A DNA stretch of 64,000 nt from Candidatus Zixiibacteriota bacterium (GCA_022571845.1 JACZXB010000002.1:43979-107978), one strand, 5' to 3'; shown: positions 20,999 to 51,956, counted from the first letter of the stretch. Notes: generated by a model not told the origin, from the sequence alone. Numbers and translations: made by a program.

Positions 20999-21223
20999 CT
21001 AAGGACAGGGGCCGGGCTGAGGGCCGCCTCTGAAAATTAAGTCGACTAGGAATGTCAAATCTAAGATATTTCCAGATATTCCGTCTCCATTTACATCCCC
21101 CTCTTCCGGACAGGCAATATCGGAGCCACCCCTGAATATCAGGTCGACAATGTAGGTCAGGTCAAGAATATCGGCTGATAGGCTATTGTCACCATTCATG
21201 TCTCCTCTTAGACCGTTACAGCA
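20999..21223 (-). other. C-terminal tandem dockerin-like module (copy A)
   Basis: CCNGLRGDMNGDNSLSADILDLTYIVDLIFRGGSDIACPEEGDVNGDGISGNILDLTFLVDLIFRGGPQPGPCP, then stop. Confidence 0.75.
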
Positions 21224-23170
21224 GCCTTCAGGAGGAGGTATCAGCGGAGATTCAAAAACAAATAACCCACTTTGCATATCTGAAACTAGTATCCTGGCCG
21301 AAGGTAAATAGGGGTATACATTCCACGCACCACTGAAGCCGAAAGTAGCAGGAGAAGTGTCAAAATGGCCTTCTTCAAACGGTGCGGTCGGATTGGAAAT
21401 ATTCCAGATTCTAAGCCCCGCCGCATAATTGGCGATTAGTAGCTTGTCACCCCTAACATAGGAGTTATGAGTCACGTTCGCCCCAGTAACTATTATATCA
21501 GCAACTTTAAAGATGCTGCTGTAATTTGAAATATCAAACACACGGGTATGATTCCCAGCAAAACCGTATTCGTCTCCGATGAATATGTAATTGCCGTCTT
21601 CGCTGAATGCTGCATTATGGGCGCCTGAGCCAGTATAATTAAAATGCCCAACCAGCTGGATTGAAGCCTTGTTGCTGACATCCAGCAAATCTATGCCGTC
21701 TCCCCAGATGCCGCAGGCAGCCAGAATGTTATTTCGAATTGCAAAATCGTGGTAGTAGAAAGTCTGATACTGACCAGCGAACTGTGGGGCGCTTGGATTA
21801 GAGATATCATAGATGACAACACCATCAGCTGACCCGCCGCCAAAATAGACATAGTCGCCGTCTACCAGACAATTATGCCTGCCTCCTGGAATTATTGATA
21901 CCTGCTGAGGGTTGCTGGGATCGCTTAAATCCACAATCATTGTAGAAGCATTTTCAGATACAACAATAGCATAATTCTGGTAAATCTTTACATCCTTTAA
22001 ATCAGCGGTGCCCGGTACAAAACCGACTTCAACCAGCGGAAAAGTATCTATATCGATAATACTCAGACCATTATCGGGGGCGCAGATAAGGGCATATTCT
22101 CTGCCAGTTGCCTGATCAACATACCCCCAGCAATCGGCGTAGTTAGAATATTTGTTCCAGTAGCCGACAAGGTTTACCTGGGTGCTCAACTCTTGTGTAA
22201 AGACAGCCGCTTCGATACTTAAGTTAATTTCAATGTCTAAGTCATCATAAGCCCTGACTTGGTAAAAGTAGGACATAAACCTGGTCAGGCCTGAATGCCA
22301 ATAATTGTTTATGGCTCCGTCCAGCACGGCTAAAGTATCAGTCGGAGGCGAAGAATTTCCCCAATAGAGCACAAAGTGATCAGCGGGGGAGCCGCTTAAA
22401 AACCAATCCAGAATGGCATCATTCTCAAAAGCAATCGCGTTCAAGCTCATCAAAGTTAATATCTCTATAGCTGCCGGCTCGGTTTCAAAATAAGTGTGTC
22501 CGGTCGCCAGCCGCGGCCACCAGGCGTAAAGAACATCCGGGTCATTAAGCAGTATATTTATGCCGGCATAGGTTGTGCCGGTAGAATCATAGGAGGAATT
22601 CATTACAAACAGGTATTCATAGTTCCCTTGTGGGCTGCTATCCGGGTCCCAATGAAAATTGACGGGAGGAGTAGAGGCATCCTCAAATTCTACAATGCAA
22701 AGATTCAGCCTGCGGGGATTAGCTGCATCTGATATGTCCCAGGCAGAACCCGGGAAAGTCCCTACTCCTGCTGAGTTGTAAGCAAAATCCCGGCGAAAGA
22801 CCTGAACGTTTGTCCAATTAGCTGTGTCACTGTCAAATTTGATTTCGACCGGTATATACTGTTCAGGGAGTATACTGCTGCCAAAGAAATCCACTCCCTT
22901 GGCCATACTTCCGCCAAAGGTCTCAAAGCCGAAATTTACACCACTCATCCATTGTGTTTCCCCAATCCAGGTAGCAAAAATTGCAGGACCATGTTCTTCA
23001 CGAAGTACTACAGATGTTTCCTGCTGCTCCTGCCAGTTTGTTGCTTTTAGAAAGAGTTTTTCATATTCGGTTAATTCGAAACCGGAATTAAGAACCGGCG
23101 GGTCTGCCTGTGCCAATGAATATAGGCAAAGAAAAGCCGCAGCTAATAGAGTTAGGAATCGTTTCGACAT
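20999..23170 (-). CDS. Secreted paralog A: novel N-terminal domain + FN3-like + LVIVD/choice-of-anchor-B beta-propeller + C-terminal tandem dockerin-like module
   Basis: Signal peptide MSKRFLTLLAAAFLCLYSLAQA (ATG at 23170, GAGGA RBS upstream). LVIVD-type repeats (GLSIIDIDTFP, MIVDLSDPSNP, GVVIYDISNPSAP, GLRIWNISNPTAP). Confidence 0.85.
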   Translation of the reverse strand: MSKRFLTLLAAAFLCLYSLAQADPPVLNSGFELTEYEKLFLKATNWQEQQETSVVLREEHGPAIFATWIGETQWMSGVNFGFETFGGSMAKGVDFFGSSILPEQYIPVEIKFDSDTANWTNVQVFRRDFAYNSAGVGTFPGSAWDISDAANPRRLNLCIVEFEDASTPPVNFHWDPDSSPQGNYEYLFVMNSSYDSTGTTYAGINILLNDPDVLYAWWPRLATGHTYFETEPAAIEILTLMSLNAIAFENDAILDWFLSGSPADHFVLYWGNSSPPTDTLAVLDGAINNYWHSGLTRFMSYFYQVRAYDDLDIEINLSIEAAVFTQELSTQVNLVGYWNKYSNYADCWGYVDQATGREYALICAPDNGLSIIDIDTFPLVEVGFVPGTADLKDVKIYQNYAIVVSENASTMIVDLSDPSNPQQVSIIPGGRHNCLVDGDYVYFGGGSADGVVIYDISNPSAPQFAGQYQTFYYHDFAIRNNILAACGIWGDGIDLLDVSNKASIQLVGHFNYTGSGAHNAAFSEDGNYIFIGDEYGFAGNHTRVFDISNYSSIFKVADIIVTGANVTHNSYVRGDKLLIANYAAGLRIWNISNPTAPFEEGHFDTSPATFGFSGAWNVYPYLPSARILVSDMQSGLFVFESPLIPPPEGCCNGLRGDMNGDNSLSADILDLTYIVDLIFRGGSDIACPEEGDVNGDGISGNILDLTFLVDLIFRGGPQPGPCP

Positions 23171-23352
23171 TGCTGTTTTCCTCAAAACTAAAGAGGTTTG
23201 ATTAGGGTCATAATTCAATGGCGGTATCTACCAGTCTAAAATAGATGATTTCCTGTCAAACGCAACCACAAATTTCTATACGGCTATATTTATGAATTGT
23301 TCGGCAGAAAAAATCTCAAAAAACGCATATCAGGAGGATTTTCAATGTTTTA

Positions 23353-23577
23353 TTAGGGGCAATCAGCTGGCGGGTCGCCGCCTCTGAAAATTAAGTCCAC
23401 TAGGTATGTCAGGTCCAGTATATCAGACTGAATGCCATCGTCATTTATGTCACTTTCAAGCGGGCACTTGCCGTTATCGCCGCTGCCCCTGAAAATAAAA
23501 TCGACTAAGAAAGTAAGGTCGAGAATATTTGCATTTGTCCCATCGGAATTAAAATCGCCTCTTTGTCCTTGACAACA
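23353..23577 (-). other. C-terminal tandem dockerin-like module (copy B)
   Basis: CCQGQRGDFNSDGTNANILDLTFLVDFIFRGSGDNGKCPLESDINDDGIQSDILDLTYLVDLIFRGGDPPADCP, then stop. Confidence 0.75.
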
Positions 23578-25839
23578 GCTGCTTGTAAACAGGAATACCA
23601 GGTCGTCAATTTCATCAATACCCGTAAAATCCAGGACACCGTCATTGTTGCGGTCGTGCAAAATACAGCAGGAAGCTGTAGAACTGGCCGGATAGTCCGC
23701 CGGATTTATAAAATTGCCGCTGCCGTCATTTTCGAATATCCTGAAGATGTTGCCGGTAAAGGAGCTTGTTACCATATCCAGGTCGCCATCTCCGTCCAGA
23801 TCACCCAGATCAATAGCTATTGCAAATGGAGGCACACTATATATTACTGCAGGAGACAGACCGCCCAGCCCGTTTCCAAAAATTACTACCGCATTATCGC
23901 CGAGGGCATTTGCAGAGACGACATCAACATTTCCGTCACCGTTAACGTCCCCGACAGCTAACATCCAGGGGCTGCCCATGGCGTCCACTTTAGATGCAAA
24001 CTCTAATCCGCCCTGGCCGTCGCCAAGCAGCAGTACTATCTCTTGGCTGCCATATGCCCCAACAAACAGATCCGGTATGCCGTCATTGTTGGCGTCGGCT
24101 GCAGCGCAGGCAAATTCACCCGATGAGCCGCTTTCAACTGGGATTACTGTAGAAAAAACTCCGTTTCCGTCATTCAAAAAAATAGTGATATTGTCGCTGC
24201 TAATATTTGAAGTACAAATATCGTCATCACCATCGCCGTCAATATCCATTACAGTTACACCCCGCATCCCAAACCCGCCGGTATATTCGACTACAGAGGT
24301 AAATCCGCCTGAACCGTCCCCAAGCAAAATCCTCAGTTTATCAGTAAAAGTTGCTCCTACGGCCAGGTCTATGATGCCATCGCCGTTAAAGTCTCCACCT
24401 TCGTTGGGACTGGCAACCCCGTTTCCGGAAAACGGATAAGTTATAAATCCAGAAAAATATCCGGTGCCGTCATTTAATGCTACCCGGACATCGTCAGCTA
24501 TCTCATTTATAATAGTAAGGTCACTGAAACCATCATCGTTTAAGTCTCCTGCATAAGCGCCATAACACTGAATATGCCCTTCGCCGCTGTCTCTTACTGT
24601 GAAAACAGTATCGAGCGTTTGGACAATAGACGAAAAATCGGATTTTGCCCAGAAACTCCAGCTATATCCGGTTGCCATCGGAGTGGCAGCAAAGGTAGTA
24701 ATTCCTTTAGACAAAGAAACAGTTATCCATTCGCCGGCAAAAAACGGTTCATCAGGAGTAAAGCGTACTTGTCTGTTCCCATTTTCGAATTGAAACAGAC
24801 CCGTAGCAGGGCCTGACCATCTTCCGAAGACTCTGAATGTCGAGCTGTTGATAGTTGACGGGTCCATTGTCGAGTCAAACTTTACTACGATGTCAGTTTG
24901 TCGCTCGGCCGCAATTTCCTGCGAGGCCGGGAATACAGAATCAACAGGCGCCAGCTGGCGAATTGTTACACTTGTTTCGAGACTAATCAAAATTTCGTTG
25001 TCCAGAGAGTCGAAAGACTTAATTCGATAAAAATTATCTGTATCCGGAGTAAGCCCGGAATGTAAGTAGGTAGTGTCAACGCCTGAGAGCTCTGCAATTA
25101 TTGAATCAGCTGCCGAGTCACCCCAGAAAAGTTTGTAATTATCGGGTTCAGTACCGGGAGAAAGCCACTGCAGATGTACTGCCAATTTTACTTGAATGGC
25201 CATAAGATTTATTCTTGGATAAATAAACAACGATGCCGGCAGACTTTCTAAAAAAGTGTGGCCATCGGCTACTCTCGGCCACCAGGCATAGAGCACATCC
25301 GGGTCGCCTGTCAAAATATTGATTTCCTCATAAGTGGTCCCAGAGGAGTCATAGGCAGAATTCATCACGAACAGATATTCGAATTTCCCGGAAGGACTAT
25401 CATCGGGATCCCATTTAAAGTTTGGGTCGGGAAGACCGCCAAAGCCGTCATCGTATTCTACTATGCAAAGATTCAGCCAGCGAGGATTAACCGGGTCGCT
25501 GATATCCCAGGCTCTGCCCGGAAAAGTGCCGACTCCGGCAGAACTGTACGGCCCCCTTCGGAAAGTTTGTACCAAAGTCCACAGAGTAGTATCAGTTTCA
25601 AACTCTATTTCGACCGGTACATAGTCATCTGTAACAACGTTGCTTCCAAAAAAATCAACACCTTTGGCAATACTTCCGCCAAAAGTTTCATAGCCAAAGT
25701 CTCTCCCGCTCATCCACTGCGGTGTTCCGGACCAAACAGCTTCAATAGGGAAGTTCTCGGCAGACAAAGCAGGGGGAGAAGTTGCCAACAAGAAAAAGAT
25801 AACGCCAAACATGTTTCTGTAATTAGAATATTGTTTCAT
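23353..25839 (-). CDS. Secreted paralog B: same novel N-terminal domain + FN3-like + SbsA/Big_5-like Ig + FG-GAP/VCBS repeats + C-terminal tandem dockerin-like module
   Basis: Signal peptide after MKQYSNYRNMFGVIFFLLATS (ATG at 25839). FG-GAP-type repeats GDLNDDGFSDL, GDFNGDGIIDLAVG, DIDGDGDDDICT, ADANNDGIPDLFVG, GDVNGDGNVDVVS, GDLDGDGDLDMVT. Confidence 0.85.
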   Translation of the reverse strand: MKQYSNYRNMFGVIFFLLATSPPALSAENFPIEAVWSGTPQWMSGRDFGYETFGGSIAKGVDFFGSNVVTDDYVPVEIEFETDTTLWTLVQTFRRGPYSSAGVGTFPGRAWDISDPVNPRWLNLCIVEYDDGFGGLPDPNFKWDPDDSPSGKFEYLFVMNSAYDSSGTTYEEINILTGDPDVLYAWWPRVADGHTFLESLPASLFIYPRINLMAIQVKLAVHLQWLSPGTEPDNYKLFWGDSAADSIIAELSGVDTTYLHSGLTPDTDNFYRIKSFDSLDNEILISLETSVTIRQLAPVDSVFPASQEIAAERQTDIVVKFDSTMDPSTINSSTFRVFGRWSGPATGLFQFENGNRQVRFTPDEPFFAGEWITVSLSKGITTFAATPMATGYSWSFWAKSDFSSIVQTLDTVFTVRDSGEGHIQCYGAYAGDLNDDGFSDLTIINEIADDVRVALNDGTGYFSGFITYPFSGNGVASPNEGGDFNGDGIIDLAVGATFTDKLRILLGDGSGGFTSVVEYTGGFGMRGVTVMDIDGDGDDDICTSNISSDNITIFLNDGNGVFSTVIPVESGSSGEFACAAADANNDGIPDLFVGAYGSQEIVLLLGDGQGGLEFASKVDAMGSPWMLAVGDVNGDGNVDVVSANALGDNAVVIFGNGLGGLSPAVIYSVPPFAIAIDLGDLDGDGDLDMVTSSFTGNIFRIFENDGSGNFINPADYPASSTASCCILHDRNNDGVLDFTGIDEIDDLVFLFTSSCCQGQRGDFNSDGTNANILDLTFLVDFIFRGSGDNGKCPLESDINDDGIQSDILDLTYLVDLIFRGGDPPADCP

Positions 25840-25897
25840 AACTTTTTCCTGTCGGCGACGTGATAACTCGCCCAAGAGCGAGTCAAAGTTTTAGCTA

Positions 25898-26119
25898 TTA
25901 TGGACAGGAGCCGGGCGCCGGGCCGCCTCTGCATATCCTGTCAATGATAAATAGCAAGTCGTCGATGTCCACTATGTTGTCGTTATTAACATCGCCTTCA
26001 TCCTCGCAGGCCGGCGCCGGTCCGCCCCTGAAAATGAAGTCAATAAGATAAACTACGTCTGTTACAGTTACGGCAGGATTTCCATCGTTGTTCATGTCGC
26101 CTCGGTTGCCTACACAACA
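25898..26119 (-). other. C-terminal tandem dockerin-like module (copy C)
   Basis: CCVGNRGDMNNDGNPAVTVTDVVYLIDFIFRGGPAPACEDEGDVNNDNIVDIDDLLFIIDRICRGGPAPGSCP, then stop. Confidence 0.75.
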
Positions 26120-28063
26120 GCTTTCTCCCGGTACGAAAGTATTGAATACATAAAGCCCGGTCTGCATATCTGAGACAATTACTTTTCCCGATTCAAAATA
26201 CGGGTAGACACCCCAGGCGCCTTCATACGAACTCATCGGAGTTTGCAAGTGAGTATCGTAAAAGGCAACTTCATAAGGGTCAGTAGGGTCTTTTACATTC
26301 CAGACGCGTAAACCGTCTACATAGTGTGCAATAAAGAGATGTTCACCCTTCACATAACTGTTGTGAGTGACAGTATTTGGGTCGACTATAATATCTGCCA
26401 CTTTGTAAATGCTGCCTAAGTTAGAAATGTCAAAGACTCTGGTATAATTACCGCTGCCAATTTCATCTCCGATAAATAGAAAGTCACCATCTTCGCTAAA
26501 GGCCGCATTATGTGCTCCCGAACCGGGGTAATTAAACTGGCCAATCAATTGTATATTGCTCTTGTCTGTTAAATCCAGAATATCTACTCCAATACCATTA
26601 ATAGCACAGGCTGCCATAGTATCATTTCTGATGGCTACATCATGGTAGCTGTAGGGACTATAGGTGTTAACATATTCAGGGTTTGCCGGATCCAATATTG
26701 AATATATTACAAGCCCTGAGGGACTTCCCCCAATTTGATAGACGTAATGTCCATCAACCAGTCCATTGTGACAGCCACTGGACATTGTTGAAACAACCTG
26801 AGGATTGGTAACATCGGATATGTCGGCTATGATGGTTGGACCACCTTCTTGAAAAATTATTGTATAGTGACTGTAAGTTTTAACATCCTTTGTGTCATTT
26901 CCACCAGCAATGAAACCTACTTCGACAAACGGTGTGTCGTTTATGTCAATAATGTACAGCCCCGAAAACCTGCCACATATTAAGGCATATTCTTTTCCAT
27001 TGGTGCTGTCAGTATAGCCCCAAATATCGCCGTAGCTGGAACTCCCGTTCCATTGGCCGAAGAGGGATAGGTTTAGAGTATTATATCTGGTTCTGGTACT
27101 TTTAACGCGACTTGAAAGCAGTTCGTTATCGAGAGAATCATACGACCTGATTTGATAGTAATAATCTATTTCTGTCATCAAGTTGGTATGAGCAAAGTCC
27201 CGAATATCCCCAGGCTGTTCTGTCAGCAATTGGTCAGGTATTGAATCTGTATCCCAGAAGATTTTGAAATTGTCAGGATTTTGACCCGGGTAGACCCAGT
27301 TGAGATAAACTGAGTCCTCAAAAGCCGTGGCCAGCAGGCCAATATAGGTATTAATAACTAATTTGGCTGTATCAGTTTCAAAAAAGGTATGGCCGTCGGC
27401 AAGCCTTGGCCACCAGGCGTAGAGATTGTCCATGTCATCCAGAAGGACATTACTATCGGCATAAGTCAGGCCGGTGCTGTCGTAGTCACTTTTCATAATT
27501 AACAGGTACTCAAACTTTCCCTGAGCGCTGTTGTCGGGGTCCCATTTAAAATTCGGGTCGGGCAGGGGGCCGCTACCATCATCATATTCAACAATACAAA
27601 CATTAAGTCGGCGCGGATTAGCAGGCTCACTTATATCCCAGACTGAGCCGGGGAAAGTACCTACACCTGCAGACCTGAAAAGGTTTTCCCTTCTAAAAAA
27701 CTGTGCATTTGACCAATTGCTACTATCTATATCAAATCTGATTTCAACAGGAATGTAGTCTGTGGAACCTAAATTACTTCCAAAAAAGTCCGCACCCTTG
27801 GCAATACTTCCGCCAAACGCTTCATAATTAAAATCAACGCCACTCATCCATTGCGGTGTGCCTATCCATTCGGCATATATCTCAATCAGGCTGTCGCCGC
27901 CGGGAAGGCTCGAACTACTTCTGTTTTCAGAATCAATGGCGCTGTTCTTTTCAGAAAAAGGCGCAAGCGGCGGGTCAGATAGTGCTGAAAAAGCAAAAAA
28001 TAAAATAGTGCAGAGTATCAGCGAAACAAGACTTATAGATTTCTTCATAAGAGGCCTTATCAT
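25898..28063 (-). CDS. Secreted paralog C: same novel N-terminal domain + FN3-like + LVIVD/choice-of-anchor-B beta-propeller + C-terminal tandem dockerin-like module
   Basis: 721 aa. Signal peptide KKSISLVSLILCTILFFAFSALS. Collinear with paralog A (GLYIIDINDTP, IIADISDVTNP, GLVIYSILDPANP, GLRVWNVKDPTDP). Confidence 0.85.
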   Translation of the reverse strand: MIRPLMKKSISLVSLILCTILFFAFSALSDPPLAPFSEKNSAIDSENRSSSSLPGGDSLIEIYAEWIGTPQWMSGVDFNYEAFGGSIAKGADFFGSNLGSTDYIPVEIRFDIDSSNWSNAQFFRRENLFRSAGVGTFPGSVWDISEPANPRRLNVCIVEYDDGSGPLPDPNFKWDPDNSAQGKFEYLLIMKSDYDSTGLTYADSNVLLDDMDNLYAWWPRLADGHTFFETDTAKLVINTYIGLLATAFEDSVYLNWVYPGQNPDNFKIFWDTDSIPDQLLTEQPGDIRDFAHTNLMTEIDYYYQIRSYDSLDNELLSSRVKSTRTRYNTLNLSLFGQWNGSSSYGDIWGYTDSTNGKEYALICGRFSGLYIIDINDTPFVEVGFIAGGNDTKDVKTYSHYTIIFQEGGPTIIADISDVTNPQVVSTMSSGCHNGLVDGHYVYQIGGSPSGLVIYSILDPANPEYVNTYSPYSYHDVAIRNDTMAACAINGIGVDILDLTDKSNIQLIGQFNYPGSGAHNAAFSEDGDFLFIGDEIGSGNYTRVFDISNLGSIYKVADIIVDPNTVTHNSYVKGEHLFIAHYVDGLRVWNVKDPTDPYEVAFYDTHLQTPMSSYEGAWGVYPYFESGKVIVSDMQTGLYVFNTFVPGESCCVGNRGDMNNDGNPAVTVTDVVYLIDFIFRGGPAPACEDEGDVNNDNIVDIDDLLFIIDRICRGGPAPGSCP

Positions 28064-28275
28064 CAGTCAAGTTGAAAGCAATTCTTGCCTACTCCAAAAT
28101 ACTAATAAAGCATATAATCGCAAACAATATTATAACGTAAGAAAGACAAGAATGTTTAGCGCAGAATTTGCTCTAGGAATTGAATTCACCAGACTTTTCG
28201 GATTATTTCGTAGACTATTTACTGAGTTCCATCGAAATTGAGATAGCTGAGACTTCAAAAAGACGAGGTTAAACT

Positions 28276-28563
28276 ATGCCCAAACACTATTTAATAATGT
28301 ATCACCCGCCCAGAGATGGATTTGCAGAAAATGCAACTCCAGATGAGTCCACAGAAGTTATGAAGCATTTTGAATATCTAAAGCAACTCCATGCAGAAAA
28401 GGTTGTGCTAATTGCAGGTAGAACTGAAGACGCCCGCTTTGGAATCGCTCTGATTGAAACAGAGAGAGAAGAAAAAGCCCGCGAGATTTTGGATAACGAT
28501 CCGGCTGTTAAAGCCAAAGTTTTTATAGCCGAGTTGCTGCCATTTAGTTTGGCGTTAAGGTAG
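28276..28563 (+). CDS. YciI-like small protein
   Basis: 95 aa. Size and the pattern HYLIMYHP...HFEYLKQLHAEKVVLIAGR...FGIALIE...AREILDNDPAV fit the YciI family as I remember it. Confidence 0.5.
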   Translation: MPKHYLIMYHPPRDGFAENATPDESTEVMKHFEYLKQLHAEKVVLIAGRTEDARFGIALIETEREEKAREILDNDPAVKAKVFIAELLPFSLALR

Positions 28564-28805
28564 CCAATAGGCATCAATTGCGCGAAACAGACTATTTATG
28601 GCCAACTGTGTTAGGGTGAGCCTCACCATCTAAAGCCGGGGGATACATTGCTGCTGCCACCAAACGTGCCACACTCGTCAAGGGCTATAACAGATTGTCA
28701 TGTATTGGATGTGTTTTATCCAATCAGGTGGGAATTGACTGATTCTGAATTCTCAGGATATGAGTCAGATTGAAAAAAACGCCAATTAGCACAGATACTT
28801 TAATA

Positions 28806-28833
28806 TTGACAGATTTCTAACTTTGATTATACT
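28806..28833 (+). promoter_or_regulatory. Putative sigma70-type promoter (TTGACA-16-TATACT)
   Basis: TTGACA at 28806..28811 and TATACT at 28828..28833, about 40 nt upstream of the 28872 start. Confidence 0.4.
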
Positions 28834-28871
28834 ACTGGTCGAGAAATAACTCAAAACCAAGAGGTGTATTC

Positions 28872-29477
28872 TTGAAAAAACTGCTTTTATTTCCTCTGAT
28901 GGCTCTGCTGGTAGTTGCCGGTTGCGGTCAGAAGGGGGAAGATGTACTCACCAACAATAACGGTACTTCGATCACAGACCCCTCAGATGGTACTCTTGAC
29001 CCCGATAACTTCGTACTCTACGCAACTACTGCCAGCTATGGCGAGGGCGCTTATTCTTCACCCGAAGGCATTGAACCGGAAAATATCAATCTGACGGTTG
29101 TCTCCGTTCAATTAAGAAAAGCTGATGATTCACTCGGCTGGATTACTGTCGCAGAGCCGAACGCAACCTATGATTTTCTGCAATTAGTAGACGGCGTTAC
29201 CGCCGAACTGGCCTCGGTAGCCATAGAGCCCGGCCGTTACACCATGTTGCGCATAATTGTGGCTGAGACCAACGAAATAGTTTTTGACGGCACCAGCGAA
29301 TCCCTGACAGTTCCCAGCGGGACAGAAACAGGTGTTAAGCTGAGTTTCAATGTGGTAATCGAGGGTGGTGAAACTTTGACAGCAACAATTGAATTCGATG
29401 CGGCCACTTCCATTATCAGCACCGAACAAGATTATTTGCTGCGCCCGGCCTTCAGACTCCTGATCGACAGCGAATAA
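28872..29477 (+). CDS. DUF4382-like lipoprotein
   Basis: TTG start. Lipobox LLVVAGCGQ. YDFLQLVDG...LASVAIEPGRYTMLRIIV...GTETGVKLSF...IEFDA matches my memory of DUF4382. Confidence 0.6.
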   Translation: MKKLLLFPLMALLVVAGCGQKGEDVLTNNNGTSITDPSDGTLDPDNFVLYATTASYGEGAYSSPEGIEPENINLTVVSVQLRKADDSLGWITVAEPNATYDFLQLVDGVTAELASVAIEPGRYTMLRIIVAETNEIVFDGTSESLTVPSGTETGVKLSFNVVIEGGETLTATIEFDAATSIISTEQDYLLRPAFRLLIDSE

Positions 29478-29502
29478 TAAAAATTAGTATTACAGCACAA
29501 AA

Positions 29503-29533
29503 AAAAGGCCACCAATATGGTGACCTTTTTATT
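29503..29533 (+). terminator. Rho-independent terminator (possibly bidirectional)
   Basis: Stem ggccacc / ggtgacc (one mismatch), flanked by an A-run upstream and ttttt downstream. Confidence 0.55.
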
Positions 29534-29537
29534 TCAT

Positions 29538-29637
29538 CCTTCGACCCCCTCAATTACAAGGGACTTTGTCCGCTCAGGATGACAAATCGTTTTGTGGGCG
29601 GCAGATGTCCTCACACTGTCCTGAGCGCAGCCGAAGG
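29538..29637. repeat. Dispersed nested-hairpin intergenic repeat, copy 2
   Basis: ccttcgaccccctcaattacaaGGGACTTTGTCCGCTCAGgatga... Outer arms ccttcg/cgaagg, inner arms cgctcagga/tcctgagcg. It sits between convergent genes. Confidence 0.65.
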
Positions 29638-29664
29638 GTCTGCCCCTTCATGAACTATTCGTTC

Positions 29665-30348
29665 TTACTTGCTCCCTTTACCCTTACCTTTTTTCTTGTC
29701 TTTGCCTTTAGACTTATTTTTCGCGGGTGCAGCTTTGCCCGGCTTTTTTGAGTTCGCCTGAAGTTTGGCCTTTCTCTGCTTTTCGTGTTTATGCTGCTTC
29801 ACTTTAGCGTTCAGGTTTACAAACCCCTGCTTTTTGCCACGCATTTTTACAATCTCATCAGGAGAGTAGCCATAGCGCTCACTCATAAACTTAATATTCA
29901 CAAAATTGACAACATCGCCATCGCTTAAGTGAATCTTCTTCCAGTCTTTGCGTTTCTTGTTTTTGTAATGCCCCCAGGCCTTACCATAGGGGGGGCCCGG
30001 GTCACTTTCAAAAGAAACGTAGTAGACTTCGGGGGAGAGACCAAAATGAGCTGAGATTTCAAACCATGACTTGCCTTCGGAGCGAAGTTTTACCACCAGT
30101 CCGGCGTCAACATCGCCATGACGGGAGATAAAAAAGACCACCGGCATTTCGTCATCGGGAATATTATGTTTACGGACAACCATTATCTCTGTTGCAGGAG
30201 CTTTGTAATGCTCACCGATTGACAGATAAAAACTTTTTAGTCCGTCCTGGTCGGCAGACAGGCCAAAACTTACGTCAGCGGCCCTGCTAATTACAGCAGT
30301 TATCATAAATGTCAGCAATAGAGCTGAAAAGACTTTCAAGAGTTTCAT
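29665..30348 (-). CDS. Hypothetical secreted protein with extremely Lys-rich C-terminal tail
   Basis: 227 aa. Signal peptide MKLLKVFSALLLTFMITAVISRA. Tail ...KQHKHEKQRKAKLQANSKKPGKAAPAKNKSKGKDKKKGKGKGSK. Confidence 0.6.
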   Translation of the reverse strand: MKLLKVFSALLLTFMITAVISRAADVSFGLSADQDGLKSFYLSIGEHYKAPATEIMVVRKHNIPDDEMPVVFFISRHGDVDAGLVVKLRSEGKSWFEISAHFGLSPEVYYVSFESDPGPPYGKAWGHYKNKKRKDWKKIHLSDGDVVNFVNIKFMSERYGYSPDEIVKMRGKKQGFVNLNAKVKQHKHEKQRKAKLQANSKKPGKAAPAKNKSKGKDKKKGKGKGSK

Positions 30349-30492
30349 ATGTTCCTCCGGGCTTTATCTTCCTTCTGCGATTTCAAGAAAGTACACTTGA
30401 TTATTATCGGAATTCAAACATAAAATAATACTCTTATGTTTGTCGAGTAGATTCAACTTATGTCATTCTAAAGTTCTGCCGACAATTCTAGT

Positions 30493-30783
30493 ATGAACAT
30501 CTTGCTTACAATTCTTGGCTTAGCGCTGCTGGCGTTCGGTTCATTCATAATTGTCTGCAGTTATATAGGGCAGGTGCAAAACTACAAAAACCGAGACAAC
30601 CCAAATGGTCCTCACATCTCACCCATTCCGTTTTTTGGGCCCATTTTAGTGATAGTTGGTTTAGCTTTGCTATCGGTCGAATTGTCACCATGGATGCTGC
30701 TGTTTTTCCTGTTCCACCCGGATACGGTAATAGTGGTTATTGGCCTGATTTGGCTCCTATTCAATCGCCAGAAGCAGAGCTGA
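30493..30783 (+). CDS. Small membrane protein (hypothetical)
   Basis: 96 aa with three hydrophobic helices. Confidence 0.5.
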   Translation: MNILLTILGLALLAFGSFIIVCSYIGQVQNYKNRDNPNGPHISPIPFFGPILVIVGLALLSVELSPWMLLFFLFHPDTVIVVIGLIWLLFNRQKQS

Positions 30784-30801
30784 CTCAAATTTTATCCTGG
30801 G

Positions 30802-30960
30802 TCAGCTGTACATCTGGTTAATTTTTCGGCCTGCATAGAGACCTAACCCGGTGCCAATCATACTCAAAAAGAGTGCTGTGAATATTCCCAGATGATATCC
30901 CAGCCACCAGCCAACCCAGCCACAAATAGAAGAAGAGATTATAACAATGATAACTTTCAT
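30802..30960 (-). CDS. Possible 52-aa membrane peptide (below ORF-track cutoff)
   Basis: My translation is MKVIIVIISSSICGWVGWWLGYHLGIFTALFLSMIGTGLGLYAGRKINQMYS. It has two hydrophobic Gly-zipper-like helices. No further support. Confidence 0.3.
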   Translation of the reverse strand: MKVIIVIISSSICGWVGWWLGYHLGIFTALFLSMIGTGLGLYAGRKINQMYS

Positions 30961-31181
30961 AGTAAGAACTCTATCGGAATCTTTTCAGCAATGATTGAAG
31001 TCAAAACTTCTCTTCAAAGTGAAAAAAGCTTGGGCAATTAAAAGAGCAATACTCTCGACAGGACGATCTTAGAACTTTACTGTCCGCTGTTAAGTACTTA
31101 TTAAGAGAACTGACAAGCAGATTCTTAGTTAATTATCTGTCATTGGTCAGTATGGTCTCGGAGGTCCGTGATTATTAGTTT

Positions 31182-31215
31182 AAAAAAAACTTGCCGACCC
31201 CGAAAGGTCGGCAAG
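31182..31215 (-). terminator. Rho-independent terminator of the 1352-aa gene
   Basis: Perfect stem cttgccgacc / ggtcggcaag (31190..31215), followed on the minus strand by T8 (A-run 31182..31189 on plus). Confidence 0.8.
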
Positions 31216-31244
31216 TATAACAGATTTGAAACTACTTCATGTTT

Positions 31245-31457
31245 CTATGGATGAATTAACTCCGAACCACCACGGAAAATGAAGTCTACAAACATAGTAA
31301 GATCTACGATGCCAACTGAACCGTCGGCATTCACATCGCCTGTCTCCAGGACTAAAGGCGCATCACCACCCCTGAATATGAAGTCGACCATGAAAATAAG
31401 GTCAAGAATAGTGAAATTGCCATCCAGGTTAACATCGCCTGAAATATGTCCGATTAT
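31245..31457 (-). other. C-terminal tandem dockerin-like module (copy D, Cys-less variant)
   Basis: GHISGDVNLDGNFTILDLIFMVDFIFRGGDAPLVLETGDVNADGSVGIVDLTMFVDFIFRGGSELIHP, then stop. Confidence 0.75.
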
Positions 31458-34400
31458 GTTGCAGGTTCCGGACAATCCTCCCGACGGTCCACCGGTGTAA
31501 TCGTAGGTGACGTCGAAGGATGATACAATCTCATCCCAGATAAGAGTTCCGTCCTGTACACATAAAATATAATCAGTGACCGGGTAAGAGATATCAAGGA
31601 CCTGTCCCAAACCAGGCAGAGACTCATGAGACGCCAGTAGTTCAGTACCGCTTATCGGTACAGAACAACCGCTGGTGGGAATAACCATGGCAACTGAACC
31701 AAGATCCACATCAGAAAGTGAATAACCTAAACCCGAGGCATAGGCTTCACTGATGTATAAATGACCGGTTATCGGCTCAAGGGCATATTTCATAACTACG
31801 CGCTTAGGACAGGGGTCCATCGCCCAGGTTGGGTCGCCCTCACCAGCCACATTGATTGTATAGTCCTCAACATCACCGAAGGAAGTGGGTCCACACGGGG
31901 GCGGAGGAGCGTTATAATTCATTCTAACGCGCATTCTGGTGGGTCCCGGAAGTGCGTCACCAGGTACTACCACATTACCGGTATATGGACCTGAACCCGT
32001 AGACACGTCCAAAGTAACCGCTTCAGTCACTTCATCAAAGACGTAATCCTGATTCCAGTCGACCCAGACAGCACCTTGGTCTGTTTCGAAGTAGGGGTTA
32101 CCGAGTGTTATGATAATTGGATAGCTTCCGCCTACTTCCATAGTGGTCGAGAGCGCTGTGTAGTCACCGTACATGTCGCAACCGGTAGTGTTGTTGATAT
32201 CACCGACAGTTACGTTCGAAATATATTCATCGCAAATGTTACTTGTTGCTGAACAGTATGAAAGAACTCCCTCCTCAGCAAGGACAGTGATGGAGTATGG
32301 ACCTTCGGCGCTACTAGACGGGTCAAGCAAAACAGGGTAATAGTAGGTTCCGGCAGGCATACCCTCCCAGTATATCGTGACATTGCCGTCACCACAGTCA
32401 TCAAAGTTAAATGTGCCTGCGGTGGTGAAGTCCGTACACGGGCATCCCAGTGCCAGATTCAGCCAGGCATTACCGAAAGCGGGTGAAGTACCACAATAGC
32501 TAAGGGTAATATTCGCGGTTGCGGGGGTAGTAAATGCCTCCCATGCATGGCCACCGGCGAAGAATTCGCACTCGTGAGTGGCACAAGTGTTATCACCGGT
32601 AAAGGTGACGGGTGTGCCCAGCGTCAGTGCAGTTGGTGTGACCGATGCACAGTTATCATTTGCGGGAGGGTCACAGACGGTACACTCTATGGAAATTACT
32701 CCGTTACCGGTGTTGCTTGCGTAACCCCCGACTTCAATCAAATAGGTATTTCCTGTGACAGCGTCAAATGTGATTTGCGACTGCAGGCCACAGTAGTCAT
32801 CGTTACAGCCAATCAGAGGTGCTGTATTAGGGTCGACTCCGTCATAAATACCTAGATAGGAATCATAAGATGAGCCGCATAAACTTACTGTCGCCGGGCC
32901 TGTGCAGGTAGCCGTATAACAGTACCAGATATTAGCTGAGGTCATACATCCTCCCGGGCCATCGAAACTCGTGCCTATGGTAGTGTATGCCTGATCTACT
33001 ACGTTACCGATTTCTTCGCATTGCTCCCAATCATCGTTTTCAGGACCAGGAGCGGCTTCGGATATCGAGAGATCAAAATTAGGTATGCAAGCCGGTGACG
33101 GCCAGGTGTCTATCATGATATAATAGATGCCCGGATCCAAAGTTATTCCATAGAATCCCTTAGGGCTGCTGCTGGAGCTGGTAACTGTCGCGATACATGT
33201 CGAATTGGCGTCAGGGCATTCGTCATCAATAGACATCCCGGACCATGTCGTACCATTGGGGTCAAGGACAATATCAAGAGATACCGTTGCGCTAACTTCG
33301 ATCGAGTATATAATGTCCTCGCCGCCGTCGTACGATCCCAGACAGGTAGAGCTGTAGTTGTTACCACGACCACATGTCGTCTGACCGGCATCAAGATAGG
33401 GCAGGTCTTCCGGGATCTTAACGATTATCGGGTCAGTACAGTCATCACCGGCCGTTGGACCGGCGGACTGTGCGAAAGTCAAGTCAAAGTCAGGTATACA
33501 GTCCGGAGCTGGCCAGGTATCTACCATCACATAGTAGGTGCCCGGCTCCAAATGTACTCCAAACATCGTATGTGGCGATCCGCTGGAGCTGGTCGAGGTG
33601 CCGATACAGGTTGATGGGTCGGGAGGACAGCTGCCGTCGATCACGAAGCCGGTATAAGTGGTACCCTTGGCGTCGAGTGTTATATCGACATCGATAGCCG
33701 TTGCAACATTGACTTCATAAATAATGTCCTCGCCACCATCGTAAACGCCGAGGCAGGTGGCATCATAATAATCCAGCCTGCCGCAGGTATATTGATTGAG
33801 CAGAGTCACCGGGAGGGCTTCCGAGCCGGCGATATCGACAATTATAGGAATATCACAGTTGTCGCCATCGGCCGGAGGAGGACACTCTTCCACGTTTATT
33901 GTAAACTGGAAATCCGCCTCAATACCGTTACAGCTACCGTCACCTATGAAGACCGGGAAGTAATAGGTTGCCGGTCCGCTCAGGAAATCCCACCAGATGC
34001 GCGGGTTGGTAGAGCCGTCACCGCAATCGTCAAATGAGAAGCCTGTTCTGAGTATATAGGCGTTGCAATCGGTGCACTGGTCATATAGGACAACACCGAT
34101 ACACTCGATATCCGTGCTGGTGCCACAGAAATCTATTTCAACATTGTTACATGCATAAGGTAATTCAAATTTGTACCAAACAGCGTTCCAGTCCAGAACA
34201 CCGGGACAGTCAATTTGAGCGCCGAAGGTGTTTCCGGTGACGACGGTCGGGAACGGTCCGCTGACCAGTTCGGCTGTCGTGCACTCGTCATTTGCTCCAG
34301 AAACTGGACAGGGATCATCGGTGCAGTTGAGTCCTGAGGACCAGTTACCGCCGAGAGATCCGCAGTCGGCTTCGGTAATTTCGTCTTCACATGACGGAGC

Positions 34401-35303
34401 AGTCGGGTCGCCATAGCAGCAACGGCCGACCGGAATGGCGGCATCGTTGATAGATATGGCATCCACTGAAAACTGAGCGCCGTCAAAACCATAGTACCTA
34501 AACGCTATTTTTACATCGGTGTAGCCAAGATAGGCAGTCAGTGGCAGGGTGGTATTGTACCAGGTCCAGCTAGTAAATTCGCCCACTTCATTTTCCGACC
34601 AAATTGGACTGCCCCAGGTAGCGCCGCCATCCGTAGACACGTAAATTTCCAGATCGCAGTTGTTATTAGGATCTACCGACCAGAAATAACTTCCCATCCA
34701 ATAGAATTCTAATACCCAGTCGGTGCCGGAAGTGGTCAGGTCGACCGAGGGACTAATAAGCCACTCGTTCTGTGTGCCAGAGAAGGTGTTGTCGTAAAAA
34801 CATGAGACGTTGTAGCTGCCTTCAAACGGGTCAAAGCTGTCTATCTCCCATGTAAAGGGGTTGGCGACAGTTGTCGACCAGCCGGTTGGTGGGACTGCGC
34901 CGCCTTCGAAGCCTTCAGCAAGCAAGTCCACACGATTGGTCGAGGGGACATAATTTGATGACCCGGCCCATGGGTTTGTTCTGAGGTCCTCCGCTTGCAG
35001 ACGTTGTGCAAACGGGCGATTCGCTTGCTCCAGGGCCAAACGTTGAGCAATCTCTTCATCTGAGGGCTGCTGGCCGTCCGACCAAACCGGAGGACGCCCC
35101 TCATCCTCAAGTGGCACAGTTAATAAGTCGTGCTCAGGTTCGTTCTGAGCTTTCAGTTCCCAGTTCGGTCCCTGGAGACTCAATATAGGTTCGACAGAAT
35201 TTGGGCTTCGAGGCGGTCTTTCAGCACTGACCACGTTGTAGCCGATAGTGATCGCGACCGCGATCAACGCTACAGAACAAGCCGTTAGCAAGATTCGTTT
35301 CAT
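31245..35303 (-). CDS. Giant secreted modular protein: choice-of-anchor-J-like domain + five Cys-rich PPC-like modules + GEVED-like domain + C-terminal tandem dockerin-like module
   Basis: 1352 aa, GGAGG RBS, N-terminal TM/signal segment. FEGGAVPPTGWS...NEWLISPSVDL...LEIYVSTDGGATW is choice-of-anchor-J-like. PPC-like modules start with (A/G)ND.C and contain D.W.A.WYKF-type motifs. FGDVEDYTINV is the GEVED signature. Confidence 0.85.
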   Translation of the reverse strand: MKRILLTACSVALIAVAITIGYNVVSAERPPRSPNSVEPILSLQGPNWELKAQNEPEHDLLTVPLEDEGRPPVWSDGQQPSDEEIAQRLALEQANRPFAQRLQAEDLRTNPWAGSSNYVPSTNRVDLLAEGFEGGAVPPTGWSTTVANPFTWEIDSFDPFEGSYNVSCFYDNTFSGTQNEWLISPSVDLTTSGTDWVLEFYWMGSYFWSVDPNNNCDLEIYVSTDGGATWGSPIWSENEVGEFTSWTWYNTTLPLTAYLGYTDVKIAFRYYGFDGAQFSVDAISINDAAIPVGRCCYGDPTAPSCEDEITEADCGSLGGNWSSGLNCTDDPCPVSGANDECTTAELVSGPFPTVVTGNTFGAQIDCPGVLDWNAVWYKFELPYACNNVEIDFCGTSTDIECIGVVLYDQCTDCNAYILRTGFSFDDCGDGSTNPRIWWDFLSGPATYYFPVFIGDGSCNGIEADFQFTINVEECPPPADGDNCDIPIIVDIAGSEALPVTLLNQYTCGRLDYYDATCLGVYDGGEDIIYEVNVATAIDVDITLDAKGTTYTGFVIDGSCPPDPSTCIGTSTSSSGSPHTMFGVHLEPGTYYVMVDTWPAPDCIPDFDLTFAQSAGPTAGDDCTDPIIVKIPEDLPYLDAGQTTCGRGNNYSSTCLGSYDGGEDIIYSIEVSATVSLDIVLDPNGTTWSGMSIDDECPDANSTCIATVTSSSSSPKGFYGITLDPGIYYIMIDTWPSPACIPNFDLSISEAAPGPENDDWEQCEEIGNVVDQAYTTIGTSFDGPGGCMTSANIWYCYTATCTGPATVSLCGSSYDSYLGIYDGVDPNTAPLIGCNDDYCGLQSQITFDAVTGNTYLIEVGGYASNTGNGVISIECTVCDPPANDNCASVTPTALTLGTPVTFTGDNTCATHECEFFAGGHAWEAFTTPATANITLSYCGTSPAFGNAWLNLALGCPCTDFTTAGTFNFDDCGDGNVTIYWEGMPAGTYYYPVLLDPSSSAEGPYSITVLAEEGVLSYCSATSNICDEYISNVTVGDINNTTGCDMYGDYTALSTTMEVGGSYPIIITLGNPYFETDQGAVWVDWNQDYVFDEVTEAVTLDVSTGSGPYTGNVVVPGDALPGPTRMRVRMNYNAPPPPCGPTSFGDVEDYTINVAGEGDPTWAMDPCPKRVVMKYALEPITGHLYISEAYASGLGYSLSDVDLGSVAMVIPTSGCSVPISGTELLASHESLPGLGQVLDISYPVTDYILCVQDGTLIWDEIVSSFDVTYDYTGGPSGGLSGTCNIIGHISGDVNLDGNFTILDLIFMVDFIFRGGDAPLVLETGDVNADGSVGIVDLTMFVDFIFRGGSELIHP
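33045..33869 (-). repeat. Tandem duplication of a ~135-aa Cys-rich PPC-like module inside the giant gene (aa ~479-616 and ~618-753)
   Basis: GDNCDIPIIV...TCGR...TCLGVYDGGEDIIYEVNV...GTYYVMVDTWPAPDCIPDFDL is mirrored by GDDCTDPIIV...TCGR...TCLGSYDGGEDIIYSIEV...GIYYIMIDTWPSPACIPNFDL. Confidence 0.85.
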
Positions 35304-35852
35304 AACTTCCTCCGAGTTAGTTAAGGGATTACCCCAATTGCAATTGTAGAAAAATTGTTCTTACCTATTATCATTTAATAAAACCATTATCATCCACAGA
35401 ACCTCCCGGCGCCGTCAAAGCACCACAGAAAAGTTGTTCTACCCTTTGCAGGTAAAATTATGAATGGGTGAGCACTGAAAATAGATTGGCGAAAAACAGA
35501 AACTAAGAGCGACAGAAAGGTGTAAATTTGTCAACCTTCAAAGTTCACTCTCTTTCTGTGCAGAACTCAAACTCTACTCCCGTCCATGAAAGAGCATGAA
35601 TCGGTGCCAAATATGAGGCACACCCAATAAATTACCTATTTTGAAAACTCTTATTATTAAATTAGACTGTAAAAAAGGTGCTTGTCAAGGACTTTTTGCT
35701 CTTTTAAATGATTTAATTGTATCGCAAAATCCAGGCTTTGATTCCAAATCAATACCACCCGGCAGCACGATCCTAGATCTCTTCTGCCGTTTATGGAGTA
35801 TTATCTACCAGCACTCTGGTCATGCAGCCATACAAAAAATGGCTTAGTTCAA

Positions 35853-36074
35853 TTAGCACGGCCCGGGAGATGGTCCGCCGCGAAAGATTCTGTCCACCAG
35901 GAAAGTCAAATCAAGAATATCTGCAGGATTGTTGTCACCATTAACATCGCTTTCATTTGGGCATCCACCCGAATCGCCGCTACCTCTGAATATAAAATCC
36001 ACTGTGAAGGTCAAGTCTAAGATATCAGCATCGTCTCCATCACCATTCAGATCACCCCTGTTGCCGACACAACA
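35853..36074 (-). other. C-terminal tandem dockerin-like module (copy E)
   Basis: CCVGNRGDLNGDGDDADILDLTFTVDFIFRGSGDSGGCPNESDVNGDNNPADILDLTFLVDRIFRGGPSPGPC, then stop. Confidence 0.75.
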
Positions 36075-36578
36075 GCAAGCGTCGCCTATACCATCGCCAT
36101 CAGTATCTGCTTGACCCGGATTCGGGGTGTTCGGGCAGTTGTCCTCCGTATCCACGACACCGTCACCATCTGAATCAATTCCTATAATCGTTAAATTCCC
36201 ATTGCTAATATCCTGGTAATCAGTTCCACTATTGTCCATCCTCACACGGACTCGAACTTGATTGGATTGGTTATCTGGAACTGTCCAGTCATACGTATGA
36301 ATACTTCCAACGCCTGGATCGCCCGCAGGTAAATCCATGGCAATTACCAGCCAAGGGCCTCCAGCACCAGTAGTCGAGTACCATAAATCCCAGTTTTGCA
36401 AATTGTGCGAAATCGCAATAGACCATCGGATAGTATAAATGGAACCAACTTCGAGGGTTTCACCACCGTTGGGATCCGACAGCGTCACGTGTCCATTGGC
36501 ATTGCTGGCCAGTTGGAGCATGCTTACAATGGCTACCATAAGATAGAGAGAGCGCTTGAGATTGTGTGATTTGTTCAT
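35853..36578 (-). CDS. Small secreted protein: Ig-like N-domain + thrombospondin type-3-like Ca-binding repeats + C-terminal tandem dockerin-like module
   Basis: 241 aa with a signal peptide. DSDGDGVVDTEDNCPNTPNPGQADTDGDGIGDAC is a TSP3-type repeat. Confidence 0.8.
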   Translation of the reverse strand: MNKSHNLKRSLYLMVAIVSMLQLASNANGHVTLSDPNGGETLEVGSIYTIRWSIAISHNLQNWDLWYSTTGAGGPWLVIAMDLPAGDPGVGSIHTYDWTVPDNQSNQVRVRVRMDNSGTDYQDISNGNLTIIGIDSDGDGVVDTEDNCPNTPNPGQADTDGDGIGDACCCVGNRGDLNGDGDDADILDLTFTVDFIFRGSGDSGGCPNESDVNGDNNPADILDLTFLVDRIFRGGPSPGPC

Positions 36579-37065: not shown

Positions 37066-37106
37066 AATGCTCTCTCTTGATTTTATAAAAAAACGGCTTT
37101 TCAAAT

Positions 37107-37180
37107 TACCCCCGACAGGATTCGAACCTGTTACCCTCTGCTTAGAAGGCAGATGCTCTATCCAAATGAGCTACGGGGGC
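37107..37180 (-). tRNA. tRNA-Arg (anticodon TCT)
   Basis: Reverse complement GCCCCCGTAGCTCATTTGGATAGAGCATCTGCCTTCTAAGCAGAGGGTAACAGGTTCGAATCCTGTCGGGGGTA folds as a cloverleaf: 7-bp acceptor, anticodon loop CTTCTAA, T-loop TTCGAAT. Confidence 0.9.
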
Positions 37181-40337: not shown

Positions 40338-40444
40338 CCTGGAGCGACAGTCCTCTCGCGCAACGGAGAAAAAAAAGAGCCGGAAAGTTGAAAGCTCGGG
40401 TTATTTCAATTCTCCAATTAGAATTTCCAATAAATAAGATTAAG

Positions 40445-48730: not shown

Positions 48731-48928
48731 CTAGGGTGTAGGCGGAGCGGGGCCGCCTCTGTATATGAAATCAACCAGATATGTAATATCTTTGGTATCA
48801 ATTTTATAATCAAAGTTCATATCCAAAGACTGCACGGTTACTGAGCCGGGACCTCCCCGCCAAATAAAATCTATTAAAAAAACCAGATCCAAAACAGATA
48901 TTTTGTTATCGTAGTTGGCATCCCCTCT
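48731..48928 (-). other. C-terminal tandem dockerin-like module (copy F, divergent, Cys-less)
   Basis: IIRGDANYDNKISVLDLVFLIDFIWRGGPGSVTVQSLDMNFDYKIDTKDITYLVDFIYRGGPAPPTP, then stop. Confidence 0.7.
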
Positions 48929-51910: not shown

Positions 51911-51956
51911 GTGTGCAGGATTTGAACAAAAGTTTCAAATAGAAACAGATTTACTT

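Follow-up and report, generated by a model that had tools for sequence, protein, structure and literature searches.

What is the function of a short module that closes six different proteins encoded in one stretch of DNA? This question is raised by 64,000 nucleotides from Candidatus Zixiibacteriota bacterium (GCA_022571845.1 JACZXB010000002.1:43979-107978), which we refer to, at its full length, as the window. An earlier note on this DNA had offered two answers: a non-cellulosomal cohesin-dockerin network for surface display, or a recognition tag for an export or attachment pathway parallel to the type IX secretion system (T9SS). Six-frame motif scans and a listing of the open reading frames (ORFs) confirmed that a tandem module of ~70 amino acids (aa) terminates exactly six ORFs of the window, A to F, all on the minus strand:

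20999..23218, minus strand: ORF A, 739 aa, likely start ATG at 23170; signal peptide, shared N-terminal domain, LVIVD/choice-of-anchor-B propeller, predicted Cys-framed dockerin
21002..21223, minus strand: module A (aa 666-739), CC...C...C frame
23353..25875, minus strand: ORF B, 840 aa, likely start ATG at 25839; signal peptide, shared N-terminal domain, Big_5, FG-GAP repeats, predicted Cys-framed dockerin
23356..23577, minus strand: module B (aa 767-840), CC...C...C frame
25898..28063, minus strand: ORF C, 721 aa; signal peptide, shared N-terminal domain, choice-of-anchor-B propeller, predicted Cys-framed dockerin
25901..26119, minus strand: module C (aa 649-721), Cys-framed, helices divergent
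31245..35303, minus strand: ORF D, 1352 aa; signal peptide, choice-of-anchor-J, PPC-like repeats (weak), GEVED, predicted dockerin with canonical 12-residue loops
31248..31466, minus strand: module D (aa 1280-1352), single Cys
35853..36578, minus strand: ORF E, 241 aa; signal peptide, small N-terminal domain, TSP3 repeats, predicted Cys-framed dockerin
35856..36077, minus strand: module E (aa 168-241), CCC...C...C frame
48731..51103, minus strand: ORF F, 790 aa; signal peptide, S8 subtilase, PKD, predicted Cys-less dockerin
48734..48937, minus strand: module F (aa 723-790), without Cys, canonical 12-residue loops
22180-23062 (A aa 53-345), 24949-25848 (B aa 10-309) and the corresponding N-terminal part of C: shared N-terminal region

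The helix signature of the module is [LIVMF][LIV]D.I[FWYC]RGG. When the regular expression [LIVMF][LIVMFA][DN].[LIVMF][FWYC][RK][GS] was run over the whole window in six frames, it gave 11 matches, all inside ORFs A-F and none elsewhere; the twelfth half-repeat, in ORF E, falls outside these matches and was seen in the sequence and the alignment. In six of six ORFs the stop codon follows the second helix after 7-10 residues, close behind the module as had been stated. Identity to tail A across the tails is 42-68%, 19 alignment columns are invariant, and local hmmsearch E-values of the window copies lie between 1e-30 and 1e-37, so that the repeat is not a matter of chance. The trivial explanation, by which the repeat would owe its resemblance to chance, to low-complexity sequence or to an error in calling ORFs, is refuted by these values, by an exhaustive search of representative proteins (30,868 matches at E<=1e-3, of which 5,415 at E<=1e-10) and by the confident structural model described below, and we give it practically no weight.

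All six N-termini are hydrophobic and signal-peptide-like. Family searches upheld the annotations previously given to the passengers: LVIVD/choice_anch_B in A and C, Big_5 with FG-GAP in B, choice_anch_J with GEVED and a weak PPC match in D, TSP3 in E, and S8 with PKD in F. To call these passengers unrelated was, however, an overstatement. They belong to diverse families, but A and B have an N-terminal region of ~300 aa in common (51% identity, E 1e-92), and the translation of ORF C holds the same conserved motifs, so that not all of them are unrelated. The region shared by A and B matches no Pfam or NCBIfam family; in the three proteins it would represent an uncharacterised secreted domain, placed ahead of differing propeller or repeat parts.

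Fold and conserved residues of the module

In the alignment of the six copies, neither half of any copy departs from the calcium ligands D1, N3 and D5 (D-x-N-x-D) and the -Z Asp. The D/N/D/D columns are likewise invariant across 112 unique copies from metagenome-assembled genomes (MAGs). A profile of the six tails, searched against the PDB sequences, retrieved dockerin-bearing chains only (best 4fl4_A, E 9e-6). Furthermore, an AlphaFold2 model of tail A, built on a 94-sequence alignment, reached a predicted local distance difference test score (pLDDT) of 92.8 and contains three helices (residues 24-35, 44-47 and 58-70). Searched with Foldseek against the PDB, the model has dockerins, mostly of type I, as its top 30 matches, with template-modelling (TM) scores of 0.6-0.78 on target length and a root-mean-square deviation of ~2 Å. 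Because of the invariant ligand positions, the profile search and the superposition of the model, it is close to certain that the module is a divergent type-I dockerin, with two predicted Ca2+-binding loop-helix segments in a three-helix bundle. The duplicated calcium loop and helix that had been noticed in the sequence are thus upheld by profile, fold and ligands alike. A canonical pair of EF-hands was rejected: EF-hand_5 matched tail A only, with E=1.1, and parvalbumin and calsenilin superposed with TM scores of ~0.2.

The Pfam family Dockerin_1 (PF00404; gathering threshold 22.9 bits), which the earlier note had proposed as a check, recognises the tails in part. Searched alone, tails F (30.3 bits) and D (26.6 bits) exceed the threshold and tail C is borderline (22.6 bits, just under it). 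Tails A (13.4 bits), B and E (both without match) all fail it, which counts against the identification. These scores mean that the copies lacking the Cys frame are recognisable dockerins and the Cys-framed ones pass under the model. The accompanying check with C-terminal sorting-domain models came out empty: neither the T9SS, the PEP-CTERM-type nor the other NCBIfam sorting-domain models match the six tails. NCBIfam matches to MtsC and LAETG fall on TSP3 or protease regions, far below cut-off. The T9SS C-terminal domain (CTD; Por_Secre_tail, PF18962/TIGR04183) was rejected as the identity of the module, with no match on A-F and a predicted fold that is helical and not a beta-sandwich. The signals of exosortase, rhombosortase and sortase (PEP-CTERM, MYXO-CTERM, GlyGly-CTERM, LPXTG) were rejected too, the tails ending in ...IFRGGPxPGPCP without a hydrophobic stretch or a basic cluster.

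The residues of the helix ILDLT..VD.IFRGG are near-invariant in both repeats across the 112 unique copies, which agrees with one partner common to all copies and with a dual binding mode. In the PDB profile alignment, I-L and V-D sit at the positions of the S-T and K-R recognition pairs of Clostridium thermocellum.

A Cys frame had been described in four of the six copies, and we find it in the same four: CC...C...C occurs in A, B, C and E, whereas D has one Cys and F none. The pattern written at the time for these four, taken literally, fits A, B and E only loosely (A, for instance, has D.N.DN), and C carries VTDVV/IDDLL in place of ILDLT. All four Cys are present in 97 of 113 full-length copies (86%); six have no Cys, six lack the last Cys alone, two keep four Cys in a C..C variant and two show other patterns. 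The calcium loops have the canonical 12 residues in Cys-less copies and are 1-2 residues longer in Cys-framed ones. In the model of tail A, a beta-bridge joins residues 10 and 77 and so brings C7 beside C78; distant relatives (P0173 and one copy in locus L060) have one Cys just ahead of the first loop and one at the very end. We infer that a disulfide clasp joins the N- and C-terminal ends of the module, with a second predicted disulfide using the linker Cys. Alternatively, the frame may bind metal.

A further observation concerns the NCBIfam family NF045500 ('Omp28-related selenoprotein'), whose last ~115 positions match aa 122-232 of ORF E, that is, its TSP3 repeats and dockerin. The match (E 1.5e-12) stays far under the family cut-off and suggests a Cys-rich module of the same kind at the end of this curated selenoprotein family.

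Position of the module and its exchange with T9SS tails

Named database matches of the module are all from Zixibacteria. When one genome per species was scanned, 134 copies were confirmed, a lower bound on the spread of the module given the narrow search pattern; the loci returned all belong to four Zixibacteria MAGs, of which three have contigs syntenic with the window (84-91% nucleotide identity). Taking all stop-to-stop ORFs of the 74 loci and the window, 122 bear the module, the six of the window and 116 others. The module ends within 14 aa of the stop codon in 118 of them (~97%). By a crude heuristic, 84 of the 101 5'-complete ORFs begin with a signal-peptide-like stretch, and several others visibly have one behind a non-ATG start. 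The expectation that the module would always be C-terminal and always accompanied by a signal peptide is thus borne out for most copies and not for all.

One MAG, B21T1B10, encodes at least 52 distinct module proteins. Among their passengers are FG-GAP, TSP3, LVIVD and SBBP propellers, Big_5, M6 and S8 peptidases, MopE and CHRD, as well as beta-lactamase, GSDH, C-type lectin and cadherin-like domains. No glycoside hydrolase catalytic domain appears among the 25 listed families of 40 in these 52 proteins, nor any glycoside hydrolase among the six passengers of the window, in line with the earlier remark that this is not a classical cellulosome. Pfam Dockerin_1 at E<=1e-4 detects 6 of the 52. 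As the Cys-framed subtype escapes PF00404, the dockerin content of environmental genomes is under-counted, and a dedicated hidden Markov model would correct this.

Such a regular position is also what a C-terminal sorting or secretion signal would show, if recognised by an outer-membrane pathway of export or attachment, either parallel to T9SS or as a new class of T9SS CTD, and perhaps cleaved. Besides the ~97% of the 122 copies that lie at the extreme C-terminus, the module is C-terminal in 42 of 42 single-module representatives. The passengers, moreover, include the NCBIfam 'choice-of-anchor' B and J domains, a name that we take to mean domains occurring with alternative C-terminal anchors. 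The T9SS tail itself occurs in the window, on two genes adjacent to each other and just upstream of the dockerin cluster:

12807-16556, plus strand: T9SS cargo gene 1, S8 subtilase, FG-GAP and Por_Secre_tail
16553-18667, plus strand: T9SS cargo gene 2, unannotated protein with Por_Secre_tail

The two cargo genes show the organism using T9SS CTDs on passengers like those of the dockerin proteins; the same window holds S8 with FG-GAP and CTD (12807-16556) and S8 with PKD and dockerin (ORF F). The exchange is most direct in MAG B21T1B10, where the paralogues L020:1088-3613 (plus strand) and L024:10350-12776 (plus strand) share a DUF7948 and SBBP passenger (62% identity over 722 aa): L020 ends in a T9SS CTD, L024 in a Cys-framed dockerin. 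Both this exchange and the finding that no protein of the MAG loci combines the module with a T9SS CTD would suit a sorting signal.

Several observations speak against such a signal. The fold is that of a helical, Ca-binding dockerin and not the beta-sandwich of the T9SS CTD, and neither Por_Secre_tail nor an NCBIfam sorting-domain model matches it. In L028:11605-12579 (minus strand) of MAG B77T1B8, the only clearly non-C-terminal module among the MAG copies, a Cys-framed dockerin directly follows the signal peptide and precedes an M23 peptidase. Two dockerins stand in tandem in one protein in L044 and P0222, and related proteins hold 3-12 internal tandem modules. The top ranks of the representative search are such poly-dockerin proteins, with 4-12 internal modules. 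P0173, P0178, P0188, P0196, P0203 and P0246 consist almost wholly of 4-12 tandem Cys-framed dockerins, and several of them end in a T9SS CTD. Several related proteins thus place a dockerin upstream of a genuine T9SS CTD; in P0308 it is CC-framed. Lastly, all-versus-all clustering of the 732 ORFs of the dockerin loci returned only housekeeping or regulatory families and unannotated proteins as conserved neighbours, with no conserved processing enzyme beside the module genes.

Since the module occurs N-terminally, internally and alongside a real secretion signal, it behaves as a binding module. The C-terminal position that had been called obligate was overstated, in view of one N-terminal copy in a MAG and the internal arrays of the wider family. 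An export or attachment tag parallel to T9SS is disfavoured by the helical dockerin fold, by the same exceptions in position and by coexistence with the T9SS CTD; we regard a sorting signal as improbable. Given a module that binds, the tail swap is best read as a choice between direct attachment to the surface through T9SS and indirect attachment by docking onto a T9SS-anchored protein. Poly-dockerin proteins with a T9SS CTD could then be surface-anchored 'poly-plugs', the inverse of a scaffoldin.

Candidate cohesin partners and a possible surface assembly

Cohesin-fold modules occur in the flanks of dockerin genes in related MAGs that are syntenic with the window, one of them being encoded in locus L023:

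L023:3278-7834, minus strand: 1519-aa protein with Cys-rich Ig-like repeats, cohesin-like domain, second dockerin (different subtype) and Por_Secre_tail

Its cohesin-like domain scores 21.2 bits with Pfam Cohesin (threshold 24.1). The cohesin-like domain, the second dockerin and Por_Secre_tail recur in L074 and L007, apparent orthologues of L023, and in L011, a less closely related paralogue in the same MAG. A profile of the L023-type domain gave five PDB matches, all five of them cohesins (E 0.011-0.36). The family has 52 database relatives, the named ones mostly from Zixibacteria or GN15, and about half carry PF18962. An AlphaFold2 model of the family member P0122 (pLDDT 84.6) matched, among the 50 matches listed by Foldseek, cohesins throughout (E 2e-8 to 4e-4), including 2xdh. 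P0158, also a member of the family, passes the Pfam Cohesin threshold with 29.2 bits and ends in a dockerin of the FLIDYIF.GG type, and P0137 has the order FG-GAP, cohesin, C-terminal dockerin. From profiles and models, then, cohesin-fold sockets appear to exist in the Zixibacteria lineage; some are borne by T9SS cargo, and others have a dockerin tag of their own, in the manner of adaptor scaffoldins. A jackhmmer search of the MAG loci with two cohesin seeds found only four ORFs, those of L023, L074, L007 and L011.

On this basis we lean, slightly beyond an even chance, towards a non-cellulosomal cohesin-dockerin surface assembly hung on T9SS-anchored proteins, which is the first of the two original proposals with its anchor specified. 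The six proteins would be exported by their Sec signal peptides, as their N-termini suggest. The dockerin would fold in a Ca2+-dependent manner, consistent with the invariant ligands and the fold, and the disulfide clasp would form in the oxidising envelope or outside the cell. The ILDLT..VD.IFRGG helices of either repeat could then bind, non-covalently, a cohesin on a T9SS-anchored protein as candidate partner. The cohesin modules of related MAGs belong to proteins ending in a T9SS CTD and hence are presumably anchored at the outer-membrane surface. In this way propellers, adhesin-like repeats and proteases would be brought together in a 'cellulosome-like' surface assembly that is protein-based and non-carbohydrate.

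A number of points weigh against this assembly. No cohesin was found in the 64 kb of the window, the first proposal gaining its support from the syntenic MAGs and from the lack of glycoside hydrolases among the listed passenger families. In the best MAG, for the part of the genome covered, two cohesin paralogues face at least 52 dockerins. The cohesin genes were found solely as flanks of dockerin genes, a proximity biased by ascertainment; with at least 52 dockerin genes per genome and flank-only sampling, it carries little weight. Every cohesin protein found has its own adjacent dockerin of a different subtype, which may be the true ligand of the cohesin. Finally, Sec-exported dockerin proteins would still have to cross the outer membrane of a diderm. 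The contigs L077 and L078, which carry cohesin homologues, were discarded as evidence of proximity: their genes are fragmented, and nearby dockerin genes are not significant given their density.

The imbalance between plugs and sockets also feeds a second explanation, in which the dockerin fold has no cohesin partner and binds a surface glycan or lipopolysaccharide, mineral or particle surfaces or other dockerins, or stabilises secreted proteins. Dockerins far outnumber the cohesins found, these cohesins have their own flanking dockerin, and poly-dockerin proteins without any other domain exist (P0173). On the other hand, surface helix positions that are near-invariant in both repeats across unrelated passengers argue for one specific proteinaceous partner, cohesin-fold modules are present in the same MAGs, and cohesins occur naturally fused to dockerins of the same type (P0158, P0137). 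We judge a dockerin fold without cohesin unlikely, though far from negligible.

A second partner domain is conceivable. The A6 domain was found in these genes:

L059:12969-13877, L059:13876-14835, L066:9314-10231 and C-terminus of L041:1207-6060, plus strand: A6 domain, ~165 aa, uncharacterised

In two small tandem genes it is combined with a T9SS CTD, and elsewhere with TSP3 and a Cys-framed dockerin. In L041:1207-6060 (1618 aa) it follows an internal dockerin, and this protein also has a weak Pfam Cohesin match. Although cohesin-like by eye, A6 was rejected as a cohesin, with no match in the PDB or Pfam and an hhalign probability against the cohesin profile of 3.9%.

A more ambitious picture, tentative and in our view rather doubtful as a whole, would be a Zixibacteria 'dockerome', in which dozens of Sec-exported propellers, adhesin-like repeat proteins and peptidases plug specifically, by a disulfide-clasped dockerin, into cohesins and possibly A6 domains delivered and covalently anchored via T9SS, with paralogues toggling between direct attachment (T9SS CTD) and indirect attachment (dockerin).

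The surroundings of the module genes add some observations. Adjoining ORF F, 51404-57466 (plus strand) encodes a GspH-like pseudopilin, PilM, PilN, PilO, a 513-aa unannotated protein and a secretin; this cluster could be a type IV pilus or a machine like the type II secretion system, and as a possible outer-membrane route it is a lead at the level of coincidence. A 507-aa product with a weak DUF6427 match, taken as a membrane protein (38814-40337, minus strand), has paralogues in L023, L056, L060 and L062. In these four other loci the DUF6427-like paralogues lie within ~5-8 kb of dockerin genes, which are dense there. The dockerin cluster is flanked or interrupted by two secreted proteins without Pfam family, one of 393 aa (18670-19851, minus strand) with paralogues in several dockerin loci and one of 227 aa (29665-30348, minus strand) with a Lys-rich C-terminal tail. 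The DUF4382 lipoprotein between C and D was rejected as a general partner, since it recurs only in the orthologous locus. The gene context of P0028 was uninformative. Two tRNA genes complete the features:

37106-37181, minus strand: tRNA-Arg(tct)
40444-40518, minus strand: tRNA-Pro(tgg)

Relation to known systems

If true, the docking model would take cohesin-dockerin assembly beyond the Gram-positive bacteria that degrade cellulose and into a candidate phylum of diderms, couple it to T9SS anchoring, and put it at the service of proteases and adhesion-type proteins instead of carbohydrate enzymes. A disulfide-clasped dockerin could, in addition, serve as an oxidation-stable affinity tag.

Among the closest known counterparts of the module are the type-I dockerins of clostridial cellulosomes (PF00404; 4fl4_A, 2mte, 2ccl_B, 1ohz_B). 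Both have duplicated loop-helix segments of ~22-33 residues with D-x-N-x-D...D ligands, agree in the three-helix fold as predicted for the module (TM up to 0.78) and stand mostly at the C-terminus of secreted proteins, and in each both repeats are equally conserved, a prerequisite of the dual binding mode. In contrast to clostridial dockerins, the module has the four-Cys frame (86% of copies), loops 1-2 residues longer in Cys-framed copies and the helix ILDLT..VD.IFRGG in place of the S-T...K-R recognition pairs. Modules A, B and E escape Pfam, a diderm Zixibacterium is the host, and no glycoside hydrolase is among the listed passenger families. A cellulosome sensu stricto was rejected, as neither the six passengers of the window nor the 25 listed families of 40 include a glycoside hydrolase and the cohesin proteins seen have one cohesin each and no match to a carbohydrate-binding module (CBM).

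Non-cellulosomal cohesins and dockerins reportedly occur outside cellulose degraders, often in one polypeptide; their dockerins are said to have peptidases and repeat proteins among their passengers and, in many cases, no known partner. In its fold the Zixibacteria cohesin matches, among others, the non-cellulosomal cohesin of Archaeoglobus fulgidus (PDB 2xdh). In the literature searched, no paper names both Zixibacteria and dockerin, and none describes the Zixibacteria expansion, the Cys frame or the link to the T9SS CTD.

Another parallel is the cellulosome-like system of the Cloacimonadota 'Ca. Stygibacter', inferred from sequence only, in which S8 and C25 peptidases end in dockerins and a scaffoldin with cohesins bears a T9SS CTD (Williams et al. 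2021, PMC8542988). As in Zixibacteria, enzymes with signal peptide, an S8 peptidase included, end in a dockerin, a T9SS CTD on a cohesin protein would attach it to the surface, the host belongs to an uncultured diderm lineage and the system is deduced from sequence. The two differ in that the 'Ca. Stygibacter' scaffoldin has 3,755 aa with tandem cohesins and CBMs and the passengers include GH18 and GH57, whereas the Zixibacteria cohesin proteins seen have a single cohesin and their own dockerin, and the passengers are propellers, FG-GAP, TSP3 and peptidases. The Zixibacteria dockerins, furthermore, have the Cys frame and occur in much larger numbers, at least 52 per genome.

With the T9SS type-A CTD (PF18962/TIGR04183) the module shares its position on paralogous passengers, the two being mutually exclusive in the MAG loci, and surface localisation is a plausible endpoint of both. 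Contrary to the beta-sandwich of the CTD, the module is predicted to be a helical Ca-binding bundle without sequence similarity to it; the CTD is a cleaved secretion signal, a dockerin a retained binding module. What is new with respect to all these systems is a Cys-framed dockerin subtype, invisible to Pfam, on non-carbohydrate passengers of at least 52 genes per genome, together with single-cohesin T9SS proteins that have their own dockerin and the swap of CTD and dockerin between paralogues.

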